Positions 45,001 to 51,000 of a DNA stretch of 64,000 bases are shown in pieces. Position 1 is the stretch's first letter. Each line of letters begins with the position of its first letter. The position numbers are program-made. This DNA is from Escherichia coli (GTDB taxonomy: Bacteria > Pseudomonadota > Gammaproteobacteria > Enterobacterales > Enterobacteriaceae), in NCBI RefSeq assembly GCF_030013595.1, contig NZ_CP122768.1, one strand, 5' to 3'.

Positions 45001-48000
45001 TGATTCCACTGAAGCCGGAAGTGGATATCGACGCCCTTTCGCCTGACCTTGCTGCGCTGACCACAATCAGCAAACAGATTGGCTGCAATGGTTTCTTCCC
45101 GTTCCAGATCCGCCCAGGCAAAAACGAAACCGATGGTCGCATGTTCTCGCCTGCGATTGGTATTGTGGAAGATCCGGTGACTGGCAATGCCAATGGCCCG
45201 ATGGGTGCATGGTTAGTACATCACAACGTATTGCCACACGATGGCAACGTGTTGCGTGTTAAAGGCCATCAGGGACGCGCATTAGGACGTGACGGCGTGA
45301 TTGAAGTGACGGTGACAATTCGTGATAACCAACCGGAGAAAGTCACCATTTCTGGCGCGGCGGTGATTTTGTTTCATGCCGAATGGGCAATTAAACTCTG
45401 AAACCGTTGCCTGATGCGCTTCGCTTATCAGGTCTACAACCGAGCTAATGTATGCCGGATAAGGCGTTTACGCCACATCCGGCAACCTGACATAAATTAT
45501 TTTCCCGCCTCCGGGTGCGTATCAAACGCCGCCATCACCAGCGCTAACTCATCCACAGTAAAGCCATGTTTCACATCATCCACGCCCAGACCAAACTGTT
45601 CCTGCATCACGGCATATAACGACGCCACATCCGCTAGATTTCGCTGCTCCACCGCGTGCCCATTTTCATAATGGGTAAAATGAAAATTGGTCAGTGTCAG
45701 CTTGCCGCCGTCCGGCAAATGGCGGCACATCAGCAAATGATGGCGAAAATGCGACTGCGGCCAGTGCGCCGACCAGAAATTGCCCATTACATAATCGCTT
45801 TGTTGCTGCTCGCAGAGATCAAAACGGTACATCGACTGCCAGTGCTGATGATGATTAAACTGCAACACCCAATCATCACCCTCCTGTAACAACCGATACT
45901 CTCCGTGTGGCGTGATCTGCACGAGATCGGGAACTAAACGAATCGGCGCGGTTAGCGTCTGTCCACCGAAACCGACATCAGCAATCCATTTTTCCCCTTC
46001 CAGTTCCACCAACAACAAACGATGGGTGCGCGGCGGTAATGCTGGCGGATTTGATAACACTACGCGCCCTAACAAGCTGCGAACGTTAAATCCCAGCTCG
46101 CGTAACACCCGCTCAAACACGCCATTCTGCTCAAAACAGTAGCCGCCACGACGGGCTGTCACCAGTTTCTCTTCCAGCGATTGATCATCAAGCTGTATTT
46201 CCCTTGGCAGCAAAACGTCGAGGTTTTCAAATGGAATGGTGCAATTGTGTTTCAGGTGCAATGCACGCAGCGTATCAATATTGGCCGCAGCAGCTCCCGA
46301 CCAGTTAATACGGGCAAAATAATGATTCAGAATGGGCGTCATCAGGCGTTTCCCTTAGTGGTTTTCTCAACTTATAACCTGGAATAGACGCTGCACCGGC
46401 TATTTTGTGCGATCGCGGACATGCATCACGTTCGCAAATCGCCAATCCCGTTAATTTCGTTACTTATTGCGTTACGAGCTACGCTTTTAAAACACCCTTC
46501 ATAGCGAGGCGATATCGTGAGCCAATTCATTCCCGTCGAATTACACCATGCCAGCCGTCTGTTAAATCATGGCCCAACTGTCATGATCACCAGTTTCGAT
46601 GAGCAATCCCAGCGGCGTAACATTATGGCAGCAGCCTGGTCAATGCCGGTGGAGTTTGAACCGCCACGCGTGGCGATTGTGGTAGATAAATCGACATGGA
46701 CCAGGGAGTTGATTGAACGTAATGGTAAGTTTGGCATCGTTATCCCGGGTGTTGCAGCAACTAACTGGACGTGGGCGGTGGGAAGTGTGTCGGGTCGTGA
46801 AGAAGATAAATTTAATTGCTACGGCATTCCGGTAGTGAGAGGCCCGGTGCTTGGTTTGCCGCTGGTCGAGGAAAAATGTCTGGCGTGGATGGAGTGTCGC
46901 CTGCTACCTGCGACTTCTGCGCAAGAAAAATACGACACACTGTTTGGCGAGGTAGTATCAGCAGCGGCAGACGCACGGGTATTTGTCGAAGGCCGCTGGC
47001 AGTTTGATGATGATAAACTCAATACACTACATCATTTAGGTGCTGGCACGTTTGTTACCAGCGGCAAGCGTATTACCGCTGGCTAAAGAATCATATGCAG
47101 CAACCAAGTTGCTTAAGCAATGTTTCAATATGAGTTAAAAGCATATTTTATCTCACGATTGCATATTTTTAGTGAAGATTAATTTATCCTCACCAACATC
47201 ATAGTAATTGCGTATTATAGCTTCATTGATAAAGCCCTGTTTTGTATAAAATGCGCGGGCGGCACTAAAATCGATATGGCTGGAGGTCTCTACTAAAAGT
47301 AGTCTTGCGTGATTGGGACAGGTCAAGAAAAAGCAGTTTTTTCAGGGCACAGTTGCGAAAATTGAATACCGTATGGACTAATGTGAGAAAATTCCGAGGT
47401 ATGACTGTTTTGATATAGTGGACAATCAAGCGTCTCGAATTAACAATGAATTTCAGGTGCCAAGCCTTACAATTTGTAGCATGACGGATATAGGACAACA
47501 TTAGGAAATCGGACAGAAAATTCATTATAATAAAATGACAACTTATCTCTTTCTCTCACGTTCTGTGAAATTTCACAAAAGTATAAACTGAGCCAATATG
47601 CCTTTATATATAAAAAATACTCATGTTTATTATTATCGGAAAAAGCCAAGATTTGATTAAGGCCATCAAAAATATCTTTCTCATGATCTATATGTACTCT
47701 TGATGATTTTACAATACAGGGAAAGATTACGAAAGCCCGCTCCCAGCAAGGACTGACGCCAGATAGTTTCTGTCCATGGCTGCTTTTCGCATCTTACGTC
47801 TTAACCCTGCCTTGAATACCTTATCATTCGTCAAAATATTAATAGCGATGTGCCGTATCCCTGAAAATAATTCTGCTGCATTTCCTCTTCTTATTTTGCA
47901 GTCGTCTTCATTCATTACCACGTCCAGACGCCAGTGCAGCTTATTCTCCACGTGCCAGTGGTTTCGGATTGCTGTGGCGAACTTCTCTGCGCTTAAATCA

Positions 48001-51000
48001 GCAGAACTGATATAATATCTGACCGTCATTTCTCGCTCTTTCTTTTGTTCTGCTATTATTGACCGAAAGGAGACTGCCACGCATAATTTCTTCTGACCTT
48101 TCCATTCAAACGTGAAATCAATAAGTTCATCAGGGACATCGCAAACAATATGAAGACGGATTTCTTCTCTGCCGTGACTCTTTTCACTCATTGCGTAACT
48201 GTCATGCTCTGGATTATTTAATTCTTTCAGTGGGAATTTTTCCTCAAAGGCTTTATTTAGCCGACCCTGATTTCCTTTTACAGCGAATAAATAATCACCT
48301 CCCTGTTTTTGTATCTTCTCTGCAATATCTTTCTGGCAACCCATCGCATCAGTTGTGATGATTTTTCCTTTAATATCCAGCATGTTAAGAAGTTCAGGGA
48401 TAGCTGTAATTTCATTGGGTTTCTCATCCGTCCTGATCTGTCCGATGACCAGACTGTGCATTGTTGAGAACGCACTAATGACATGAATCGCTCCCTTGCG
48501 GCGACTCTTGTCATAAGGATGCCGGAGTGTTTTTCCATCAATTGCGATGACGTCTTTATCAGCTGAAGAATGGCAGTCACGCATCCAGTTAATAAAGCAC
48601 TCGTAAAATTTTGCAGGACTGATACAGGATACAACTCTGGCAATGGTATCGTTAACAGGAATACCATTTTCAAAATCACCATATTGCTTCAAAAAATCGA
48701 GATGTGTTTCCCCAAAATCCTCTATATCTTCCCAGCCTTCTGCACCAGAAATAACGGCATAAATAGTCAACAGTAGAATATCCGACAATTTATATTCCAC
48801 TTTCCAGGCTTGTCTGTAATCGGGGATAATAGAAATATGTTCCATCAATTTTTTAAGTTCCATTTTGTTCTCCTTAATTATGTAAGGAGTATTTGATCAT
48901 GTATACGCAATAAAAAACAGCTTTAGGTAATAAGGAATATATCAATTTTTAAACATAAAATGCGAATTGTCTAGTACAAAAAAGCAGCGTTACGTGATCT
49001 TTCCCTGGTTAATCATGGCTGAACACGATATTACGCCAGAAGTCACCATTTCCAAAACACAGCGCCGCTATAAAGTCGGCTATGTCAGAGCCCGCCACCA
49101 GGACCGCACAACCGGTATAGCCCGGTATTATTCACAACACCCCAGCCTGCACCTGAAGGGCGACTGGCTGAAAGAGGCCGGATTTGATACCGGACGGGGT
49201 GTCACGGTGAAGATTTCGGAGGGGTGCCTGACCATCATCGCTGACAGTGACGAGGTGCAGGAACTGCGGGAGGAACTTTATCAGGTTAAACAGGTGGTTA
49301 AGGGGATGCGGAACGGGATGTTTAGTATGCTGGACGAAAGCTAAATAATAAAAAAGCCGGGAAGATCTTATCTTTCCCGGCCATCTTGCCATACATTAAT
49401 TATTTATGAATATAATATAACTGAACATCATATTCATTATCACTTAAAACTATTAGTCGATCAGGAGATGTAAATGCTAATGAAAGATCATATGTTTCAT
49501 TTATCGAAAACAAACTCAATATGAAATTTGAAAAATTTTCGACATGAAGAGATATGCAAACATCTCCATTATAGAATATATTGCAAAGAATATCTTTTTT
49601 CACATTCAGTGTGCTTTCAACATCTCTCGCTAGATCATTAATATTTAAAGGTAAATTGAAAACTCTCCTTTCAATAATATTATCGGTTTTATTTATTGCC
49701 ATTAGCATTTCTCGATGCCACATGAAGTCATTCTTACGTAAGAATGATACATCAAAGGAAGTGACACCATTTAATTTAGAAGCATAATCTTTTGCTCTAA
49801 TTAAATTTAATTTATCTTCAAGGCTAATTTTCATAATATATATGATGATCCTTAGTTACAGGGTCATTGATCTACTGATATCTATCACTTTTGAAATCGT
49901 ATGTTCTAGGATCAGCGCCCGGTTTAGGTTGTCCTGCATGTGCGTGAGGGCCAGGAGCCCTAGGATCTGCCGTGTGCTCGACTACAACTTTCTTACGTCC
50001 GTAGGCATCCGTATATTCATAATATCGCCCATGAGACCCTAAATCTTCCGAATATTTATAATTTGTTTGTCCCCTTCTTCTAGGATCATTTCCAACTGTC
50101 CATTGCCTATTAGGTTGCTGTGAACGAGGTATGCCCGCAAGATCTTTTGCTTTATTTAGTGCCTGACGACGGTTTCTTAATTCACCACATTTCAGACCAA
50201 GCGGATCTATCCAGCTTGCTGGATTAGGCGCGTAAGCATACAGGTTCAGCCCGCCCGCCAGCCCTATCGGATCCGTTACCATGAACCGCCCGACATCCGG
50301 ATCATAGTACCTGTGCAGATTGTAGTGCAGCCCCGTTTCCCTGTCGAGGTACTGTCCCTGGTAGCGCAGGTTCTGCTCCACCCCGCCGTGGTCCTTCTCC
50401 TGTATCGTGTTACCCCAGACCTGATACCCCGTCTCCCACACGATTTTCCCGTCGCTGTCCGTCATCTCTTCCGGCGCGCCGTTCACATCCGTGTGAAAAT
50501 ACAGTATCCGGTTCGGGCCCTCTTTGCCCGCCTTATCCACCCGCGCCAGCGGTTCATAACTCCCCGGGTCCCTGTAGATGTACAGGCTGTCTGTTCCCTC
50601 CGGCCTGCTCTCCTGCGCCAGCCGCATTCCGTCCCATAAAAATTTTGTCCGGTTGTACGGTTTACCGTCAGGACTGATGTGCTGTTTTTCCGTCCGCCTC
50701 CCCAGCGCATCGTACACATACCGGTACGTCCCCCGCGCTGTCGTCACTTCCACCATCCGGTGTTCCGCATCATAACGGTAACTCTGCGTGCCGCTCCGCC
50801 CCTCCTTTTCCACCGCACGGCCAAATTCGTCGTAACGGTAGTGCACACCACGGTAAGACATCAGCCGGTTGAACGGCACCACGCTGTTTTCTGCCGTGGC
50901 CCTTTCCCCCGCGCGCCGCGCCAGCAGGTTTCCCGCCGCGTCGTACTGCCAGCTCGCCAGATACCCCTCATCCTCCGAGCGGCACGCCGTGATGCGCCCC

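Follow-up and report, generated by a model that had tools for sequence, protein, structure and literature searches.

Has the H-rpt element at the border of an Rhs element in Escherichia coli truncated the acetyltransferase gene that lies beside it? We examined this in a window of 64,000 nucleotides (NCBI RefSeq assembly GCF_030013595.1, contig NZ_CP122768.1), which is the whole stretch of DNA analyzed here. The initial annotation, which covered positions 47087 to 48966, had described a GNAT-like C-terminal fragment (about 47150 to 47330) immediately next to an H-rpt (ISAs1-type) transposase gene, and had suggested that insertion or deletion events eroded an ancestral gene on the border of the Rhs element.

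The Region Between yddH and the Rhs Element

The window corresponds to the E. coli narZ-yddE-nhoA-yddH/RhsE locus region. The final conserved core gene ahead of the variable stretch was yddH (46517 to 47086, plus strand), an open reading frame for a flavin reductase family protein (Pfam Flavin_Reduct, 77.7 bits) which carries this PGAP name in the nearest genomes. The DNA beyond it was AT-rich, as initially described, with a GC content of 0.35 to 0.39 across positions 47000 to 47800 versus 0.50 to 0.54 in yddH and upstream. From about position 50200 upward followed the GC-rich Rhs core (0.59 to 0.67), with its AT-rich tip and immunity gene and with the H-rpt element outermost. This layout is structurally the same as the classical Rhs architecture, which consists of a GC-rich core, an AT-rich tip with downstream open reading frames and a distal H-rpt, although the strain studied here differs from the classical elements in its toxin tip, its SymE-like gene and its interrupted Rhs reading frame. 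The genes b1455 to b1461 have been listed as an Rhs site, and the association with H-rpt was noted (PMC3032704).

The slot beside yddH is occupied by pptA in approximately 86% of E. coli genomes and by an AT-rich GNAT-type cassette in approximately 12%, and this cassette is decaying by several independent routes. In the IS-bearing genomes examined, the interval from yddH to ydcC was without PGAP features, and a promoter and terminator scan of positions 47000 to 49450 gave counts not above those of shuffled sequence. We interpret positions 47087 to 49007 as a decayed transition from the conserved narZ-yddH block to the Rhs toxin element at the RhsE locus, and to this reading, together with the composition and history described below, we assign a probability of about 85%.

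A Complete H-rpt Element Without a Target-Site Duplication

The presence of an H-rpt transposase was borne out, and the element that contains it was complete, spanning 1291 bp on the minus strand (47717 to 49007, rather than ending at 48966) and collinear with K-12 ydcC. It is an ISEc1-like member of the ISAs1 family, corresponding to ydcC at the RhsE locus, and the sole copy within the window; matches to H-rpt in other genomes began at position 47717. Terminal inverted repeats of 25 nt were located at 47717 to 47741, beginning with CAGGGAAAGAT and overlapping the 3' end of the transposase gene, and at 48983 to 49007, ending with ATCTTTCCCTG at the same terminus as in the copies of K-12 and the comparison genomes L002, L007, and L009. 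The 2 repeats were 80% complementary, and their outer 11 nt were perfect. The terminal inverted repeats of ISAs1-family elements begin with CAGGG in the ISfinder description, to which this copy conforms.

The transposase gene (47727 to 48863, minus strand) was intact and encoded an ISAs1-family DDE transposase of 378 amino acids that was 96% identical to K-12 YdcC. The protein matched Pfam DDE_Tnp_1_assoc with 108 bits, DDE_Tnp_1 with 107 bits, and the NCBIfam model NF033564 (transpos_ISAs1) with 400.9 bits (cut-off, 70). A single transposase reading frame and a length within about 1.2 to 1.5 kb are as expected for the family, and the original description of H-rpt gives a length of 1291 bp, which the K-12 copy also measured here.

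Insertion of an ISAs1-family element is expected to generate a target-site duplication of 8 to 10 bp; literature searches for the repeat and duplication lengths of the family returned mentions in reference lists only. By repeat finding and inspection, the flanks ATGATTTTACAATA and GTTAATCATGGCTG of the element shared no common repeat, and a duplication was found in 0 of 6 distinct full-length H-rpt copies (this copy, which L001 carries as well, those in L002, L007, and K-12, and 2 in L009). The missing duplication speaks to rearrangement after insertion, not against membership of the ISAs1 family. It was also noted that flanks reassort among the H-rpt copies: 3 different right flanks occurred with a single left flank, and 2 different left flanks with the SymE right flank.

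A Second Truncated Gene at the H-rpt Terminus

The DNA to the left of the element contained a second gene remnant (47467 to 47716, minus strand), consisting of the last 82 codons (residues 130 to 211) and the stop codon of a gene for a hypothetical protein of 211 amino acids, WP_001032567.1. All 82 residues were identical to those encoded in strain WP8-S17-ESBL-12 (L005, positions 5393 to 6028), and the break coincided exactly with the H-rpt terminus. No Pfam or NCBIfam family was recovered for the 211-amino acid protein, and the other hypothetical proteins of the cassette likewise gave nothing above threshold; the name aminopeptidase, given to WP_001032567.1 by some sources, was unsupported in the family searches.

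A break precisely at the terminus (CAGGG...), next to an element whose inverted repeats and transposase gene are both undamaged, is what simple transposition into the gene for the 211-amino acid protein would produce if the element were still at its original insertion site. This is improbable, however, since the flanks TTTTACAATA on the left and GTTAATCATG on the right contain no direct repeat, and since the right flank consists of a SymE-like gene belonging to the Rhs element instead of the remainder of the interrupted gene. Moreover, a chimeric query in which the right end of H-rpt was fused with the missing 5' portion recovered this reciprocal junction in 0 of 5,426 complete E. coli genomes. 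The lack of a reciprocal junction in these genomes points to an IS-associated adjacent deletion or to recombination between H-rpt copies, rather than to simple insertion. The query spanning the left H-rpt junction was covered to at least 80% in 41 genomes, and the junction between H-rpt and the SymE-like gene was found in 82 genomes, other Rhs loci included.

The GNAT Gene Was Truncated by a Separate Deletion

The C-terminal GNAT fragment without a start codon, described initially on the minus strand, was recovered at positions 47153 to 47311, where it comprises codons 104 to 155 and the stop codon (47153 to 47155) of a 155-codon gene. The translation of this frame, ARLLLVETSSHIDFSAARAFYTKQGFINEAIIRNYYDVGEDKLIFTKNMQS, is followed by the stop and was identical at 49 of 51 positions (96%) to residues 105 to 155 of WP_000470660.1, a protein annotated as a GNAT family N-acetyltransferase. 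In strain CP52E (L004), the gene for WP_000470660.1 is found at the same locus, 66 bp downstream of yddH and convergent with it, and the remnant was 94% identical to this genome at the DNA level (L004 positions 5914 to 6228). Strain LHM10-1 was 100% identical across the 466-bp segment that is missing from the window (see below), with a GNAT gene annotated there, so that full-length genes exist at this locus in both strains. Compared with WP_000470660.1, the window copy lacks residues 1 to 103 and the upstream region; the native ATG and the 102 N-terminal codons are gone, nor did the window contain an intact version of the gene with a start codon farther upstream. The acetyl-CoA-binding motif A of GNAT proteins, R/Q-x-x-G-x-G/A, follows strand beta-4; it corresponds to RQGVGH at residues 84 to 89 of the full-length protein and is absent from the window copy.

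A Pfam search with the 57-amino acid open reading frame (47153 to 47326) that includes the remnant returned no family at E ≤ 1, and the GNAT identity therefore rests on the full-length orthologue, which passed the cut-offs for Acetyltransf_7 (39.7 bits, cut-off 27), Acetyltransf_1 (33.5, cut-off 20.7) and Acetyltransf_10 (26.7, cut-off 23.6). The remnant by itself was nevertheless significantly GNAT-like and homologous to the C-terminal strands in the GNAT fold, matching residues 129 to 173 of PDB entry 2r7h (E = 5.1e-6). This putative D-alanine N-acetyltransferase is the nearest solved relative, and residues 2 to 150 of the full-length protein align with it (E = 1.4e-14), whereas RimI-like matches were well under the NCBIfam cut-offs (37 vs. 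86 bits). The window holds a fragment of a GNAT family protein, which is not by itself a family member. A TacT/AtaT-like toxin of a toxin-antitoxin system was considered and dropped; the best relatives were RimI-like or resembled 2r7h, and the annotation beside the full-length gene shows no antitoxin-like partner.

The multiple alignment and the BLAST breakpoints placed the end of the remnant at a junction (47311 to 47312) where 466 bp present in CP52E (L004 positions 6226 to 6691) are missing. This deletion removed the 5' 102 codons of the GNAT gene together with 157 bp of upstream DNA, its promoter region included. Only 0 to 3 ambiguous bases of microhomology were seen in the alignment at the junction. 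Beyond it lies the distal part of the former spacer between the 2 truncated genes (47312 to 47466), a non-coding segment of 155 bp collinear with CP52E from L004 position 6692 onward and with WP8-S17-ESBL-12, in which no Pfam match and, in the IS-bearing genomes examined, no PGAP feature was found. An 86-amino acid open reading frame at 47265 to 47525 was rejected as a chance reading frame in AT-rich DNA; it had no Pfam match.

The remnant and the element are neighbors, with no PGAP-annotated gene between them, and the missing target-site duplication implies some rearrangement at the ends of the IS, both of which would favor an H-rpt insertion, or a deletion starting from H-rpt, that directly cut the GNAT gene. 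This is very unlikely, because the distance from the GNAT break to the IS terminus is 405 bp, contrary to the initial description of the two as immediate neighbors, and because the intervening DNA, which includes the second truncated gene, is collinear with IS-free genomes. Furthermore, the same 466-bp deletion was present in WP8-S17-ESBL-12, in which there is no H-rpt at this position and the gene for the 211-amino acid protein is whole, whereas the identical left H-rpt junction was present in strain 2012C-4502 (L007), in which the GNAT region is undeleted. All 4 combinations were observed: neither lesion in CP52E, the deletion alone in WP8-S17-ESBL-12, the IS junction alone in 2012C-4502, and both in the window and in L002, which shares the deletion junction with WP8-S17-ESBL-12. 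The occurrence of the deletion without the IS, and of the IS junction without the deletion, shows that the 2 truncations were separate events. Thus, an ancestral GNAT gene at the Rhs edge has indeed been eroded by deletion, but the implied link between H-rpt and this truncation does not hold.

In 237 of the 5,426 genomes, the deleted form was matched over at least 80% of the stretch, at 95% to 97% identity. That it has been maintained in these genomes, that the frames of the 57-amino acid reading frame and of another of 60 amino acids (47467 to 47649) are both open, and that a few GenBank records list the former as a hypothetical protein, so that its expression is conceivable, could suggest a functional small protein under selection, but we regard this as very unlikely. 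The TTG start at 47326 chosen by the ORF finder lies on the far side of the deletion junction, by which it was created, and is spurious, with no Shine-Dalgarno-like sequence upstream; the motif region and the region upstream of the GNAT gene have been lost; and RefSeq PGAP makes no call over either frame. Other lineages have acquired nonsense mutations in this GNAT gene independently, namely W72stop among APEC O1-like genomes and, in 2012C-4502, a stop that follows codon 126, and these mutations indicate relaxed selection on the gene. The GNAT remnant and the remnant of the gene for the 211-amino acid protein are not expected to be functional.

Proposed History of the Locus

The decayed border could have arisen from an ancestor resembling WP8-S17-ESBL-12, an arrangement and an order of events that we infer from a handful of genomes and not from a phylogeny. 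Such an ancestor would have contained yddH, the deleted GNAT gene, the gene for the 211-amino acid protein, a gene for a protein of 186 amino acids, H-rpt, and the T6SS/Rhs cargo. The H-rpt in WP8-S17-ESBL-12 is an internally deleted remnant, and this strain is therefore a model of the ancestor, not the ancestor itself. It contained 1,404 bp extra between the breakpoint in the gene for the 211-amino acid protein and an H-rpt left end, and about 1.4 kb beside the left end of H-rpt would subsequently have been lost, through intramolecular transposition driven by the transposase (adjacent deletion) or else through recombination of 2 H-rpt copies in direct repeat. The Rhs side, with the SymE-like gene, the immunity gene and the toxin tip, may have been exchanged separately, with H-rpt and the Rhs core serving as portable homology.

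At this locus, the exact left terminus of H-rpt was joined to at least 3 unrelated sequences, located upstream of pptA in K-12, inside the gene for the 211-amino acid protein in the window, and, in WP8-S17-ESBL-12, 28 bp past the gene for the 186-amino acid protein, none of them with a target-site duplication. Such terminus-precise joins to unrelated sequences are the footprint expected of adjacent deletions, rather than of random deletion. The transposase-mediated version of the deletion is weakened by the published statement that H-rpt has never been seen to transpose (PMC3032704). We consider it possible, though somewhat doubtful, that H-rpt is, or recently has been, enzymatically active in E. 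coli; if it is active, a catalogue of terminus-precise junctions could quantify its activity and the trimming of DNA beside Rhs elements.

The association of H-rpt/ydcC with Rhs elements has been known for decades, and pseudogene fragments beside IS elements are routine. All of the elements described here are already annotated or trivially explained, and they represent ordinary genome decay, not a new system, which matters little beyond annotation hygiene. By-products of the analysis are the exact coordinates of 2 unannotated pseudogene remnants and the true limits of the IS element, along with a worked example of how neighboring lesions can be independent, being only 405 bp apart and yet found in every combination across strains.

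Comparison With the K-12 Element

The H-rptE element of K-12 (ydcC, b1460; ISEc1 in ISfinder) has the same locus, orientation relative to yddH, and length as the element in the window. The 2 elements were 96% identical in DNA sequence, and both had CAGGG... termini and lacked a target-site duplication. The flanks differed on both sides. On the left, pptA is located 89 bp from the end of the IS element in K-12, whereas the truncated gene for the 211-amino acid protein adjoins it in the window. On the right, the H-rpt pseudogene yncI and ydcD are found in K-12, as opposed to the SymE-like gene, the immunity gene and the Rhs toxin tip in the window. The right terminus also differed, in that the last approximately 90 bp in the window were of another sequence type than in K-12, 11 of 92 bp being different. 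Mismatches to 6 other copies, profiled in steps of 100-bp segments, revealed no clear mosaic, and the element was closest to a SymE-linked copy (L009a) throughout. Only the last approximately 90 bp clearly partitioned the H-rpt copies into 2 types, of which the element studied here sorted with the SymE-linked type.

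Gene order at the RhsE locus

In the window, narV/narI (43749-44429, +), yddE (44508-45401, +), nhoA (45497-46342, -) and yddH (46517-47086, +) are followed by an AT-rich gap, an ORF for a 378-amino acid transposase (47727-48863, -), a SymE-like gene, a 144-amino acid ORF and a large GC-rich Rhs gene (-). This is the K-12 RhsE locus (b1455-b1461), one of the Rhs sites in PMC3032704. The 701 bases over the gap between yddH and the transposase were 100% identical to those of E. coli HCP5S3_I2 and LCP30S3_I5, and PGAP annotates the matching stretch as yddH, ydcC (ISAs1 family transposase), a SymE family toxin, a hypothetical protein and an RHS protein. 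The initial annotation had described an H-repeat (H-rpt) transposase beside a start-less GNAT acetyltransferase fragment in AT-rich DNA, and this observation was confirmed with corrected coordinates; the GC content was 0.35 to 0.39 over 47000-47800 versus 0.50 to 0.54 in the flanking core genes. All components fall into long-known categories, the IS being the RhsE-associated H-rpt/ISEc1 element and the gene fragments being pseudogene remnants of a variable region.

Two gene remnants next to yddH

The minus-strand frame at 47153-47311 (ARLLLVETSS...IFTKNMQS*) had no Pfam match on its own. Among 5,426 complete E. coli genomes searched, strain CP52E was found to have, at the same position, a full-length 155-amino acid "GNAT family N-acetyltransferase" (WP_000470660.1), which passes 3 Pfam GNAT models and whose residues 2-150 align to 2r7h, a GNAT structure (E=1.4e-14). 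Since the window fragment was identical to residues 105-155 of this protein at 49 of 51 positions and itself matched 2r7h (E=5e-6), the remnant is genuine, stems from a GNAT gene and has no start codon; no intact gene with an upstream start was found in the window. Between this remnant and the H-rpt, which had been taken to be immediate neighbors, lies a second remnant that was overlooked. Its reading frame, open from 47716 down to its end at 47467, was identical at 82 of 82 positions to residues 130-211 of WP_001032567.1, a 211-amino acid protein with no family in Pfam or NCBIfam, named "aminopeptidase" by some submitters, and its coding sequence is broken exactly at the start of the IS.

Limits and flanks of the H-rpt

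The transposase matched the Pfam models DDE_Tnp_1_assoc and DDE_Tnp_1, scored 400.9 bits against the NCBIfam model transpos_ISAs1 (cut-off 70) and was 96% identical to K-12 YdcC over all 378 residues, which upholds its assignment to the H-rpt (ISAs1-type). Matches to other genomic copies start at 47717, and the IS spans 47717-49007 (1291 bp), collinear with the K-12 ydcC element; the right limit given in the initial annotation (48966) was 41 bp short. The ends carry a 25-nt inverted repeat that is 80% complementary and perfect over the outer 11 nt (CAGGGAAAGAT). No direct repeat was found between the flanks (left ...TTTTACAATA, right GTTAATCATG...), and inspection of 6 distinct full-length copies (the window copy, also in locus L001, those in strains 1190 and 2012C-4502, K-12 ydcC, and 2 in strain 104) revealed no target-site duplication in any of them. 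Left and right flanks have been reshuffled between copies: "ACAATA" on the left was seen with 3 different sequences on the right, and the SymE flank on the right with 2 different sequences on the left.

Independent lesions and decay of the GNAT gene

The window and CP52E are collinear over window positions 47000-47311 and again over 47312-47716, with 466 bp (CP52E locus 6226-6691) absent from the window between 47311 and 47312. The missing segment comprises the first 102 GNAT codons, including the acetyl-CoA motif region RQGVGH (residues 84-89), and 157 bp of upstream DNA, and the alignment revealed no meaningful microhomology at the junction. A 57-amino acid "ORF" from a TTG at 47326 was dismissed as a junction artefact, the TTG being located past the deletion junction.

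The deletion and IS junctions are 405 bp apart, and all 4 combinations were found: neither the deletion nor the H-rpt junction in the 211-aa gene in CP52E, only the deletion, with an intact 211-aa gene, in WP8-S17-ESBL-12, only the H-rpt junction in 2012C-4502, and both in the window and strain 1190. This rules out the IS as the cause of the GNAT truncation. The proposed erosion of an ancestral gene at the Rhs edge thus stands, and its tie to the IS does not, as the deletion is unrelated and the IS abuts the other truncated gene. The two lesions were reassorted through recombination or, less likely, one of them is recurrent.

The deleted form was present in 237 of the 5,426 genomes. In about 410 others, including APEC O1, UTI89 and ATCC 25922, the 5' part is kept and codon 72 is changed from TGG to TGA, leaving a 71-amino acid "hypothetical protein" in PGAP, and in 2012C-4502 the reading frame is cut short after codon 126 by a stop. 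Together, these changes show that the gene is decaying through at least 3 independent lesions. The full-length gene is rare among complete genomes: at least 80% of the deleted segment was covered in only 17, with 11 matches at least 99% identical. The exact 155-amino acid sequence was found in 603 contigs in a larger protein collection. Within a T-rich tract at 47337 (WP8-S17-ESBL-12 locus, 5226-5260 region), a 12-bp indel (TGCAGTTTTTTA) separates the window and the 2 nearest genomes from other carriers of the deletion and explains match lengths of 630 versus 641 to 642 bp among deleted forms.

Origin of the IS junction

A chimeric query in which the H-rpt right end was followed by the 5' portion of the 211-aa gene had no spanning match in the 5,426 genomes; with this reciprocal junction absent, there is no trace of a simple insertion into the gene. 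In WP8-S17-ESBL-12, the window breakpoint is followed by 1,404 bp, containing the remaining 211-aa gene and a 186-aa gene, and then, starting precisely at its left terminus, by an H-rpt with an internal deletion. Compared with this arrangement, the window lacks exactly the DNA next to the IS left end and keeps the terminus. Such a loss is the expected outcome of either an adjacent deletion, which would arise by intramolecular transposition at the H-rpt left end, or a second H-rpt insertion that would be followed by recombination between 2 direct H-rpt copies. No clean breakpoint was seen along the IS in the mismatch profile.

The left junction was covered in 41 genomes and the right junction (H-rpt and SymE-like gene) in 82. 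Among the 82 are a pptA-type genome with the right junction at this locus (L008) and strain 104 with it at rhsC/ybfD, which indicates that the Rhs side has been exchanged separately. At several positions of the locus, H-rpt junctions are precise at the terminus and free of duplications. These junctions hint that the H-rpt transposase may indeed be active, an activity that has not been observed according to PMC3032704; this is the only mildly interesting reading here.

The yddH-adjacent cassette

pptA is located beside yddH in 4,653 of the 5,426 genomes and some form of the AT-rich GNAT-type cassette in 660, and the two appear to be alternative occupants of one site. The cassette, source of the window remnants (CP52E locus 6067-9607; WP8-S17-ESBL-12 locus 5393-6948), consists of the GNAT gene and 4 small hypothetical genes (165/211, 186, 129 and 90 amino acids) without a Pfam family. 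These may be orphan immunity genes left over from earlier toxin arrays. The CP52E cassette takes up the entire yncG-yddH interval, in the order yncG, 4 hypothetical genes, GNAT and yddH, without Rhs, T6SS or IS. Genomes of the APEC O1 type have undergone another deletion, which joined the region upstream of GNAT to an internal piece of an H-rpt. The first approximately 50 bp past the yddH stop (47087-47135) aligned weakly, with about 63% identity, to the pptA 3' ends of K-12 and strain Res13-Lact-PER13-34, and may be a pptA relic under the GNAT-type cassette or a chance match.

Neighboring SymE and Rhs genes

The SymE-family type I toxin gene (49015-49344, +) starts 8 bp beyond the H-rpt right terminus, and its 5' region therefore lies inside the IS end. 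It matched Pfam SymE_toxin with 76.9 bits and the NCBIfam endoribonuclease SymE model with 49.5 bits, below the cut-off of 132. The Rfam family isrA (RF01385) was identified antisense within the gene (49086-49214, -; 112.6 bits, gathering score 51). The identical form of the H-rpt-SymE junction is the one counted in 82 of 5,426 genomes, other Rhs loci included, and the segment looks like a toxin/antisense-RNA pair moving along with the H-rpt end.

The Rhs gene (about 49856-54503, -) is broken into ORFs of 1111 and 415 amino acids by an in-frame stop at 51168-51170, with A at 51170 in the window versus G in the nearest genome, HCP5S3_I2, which has one continuous 1548-amino acid CDS. A 1-bp indel at 49948 frameshifts the end of the toxin tip, and 14 of the 20 internal differences between the two genomes over 12.7 kb fall within 49874-51567. 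Directly downstream of the tip is the 144-aa ORF (49400-49834, -; GC 0.28), which had no match in Pfam or NCBIfam and is presumed from its position to encode an immunity protein. The matching upstream tip in strain 104 is annotated by PGAP as "HNH/endonuclease VII fold putative polymorphic toxin".
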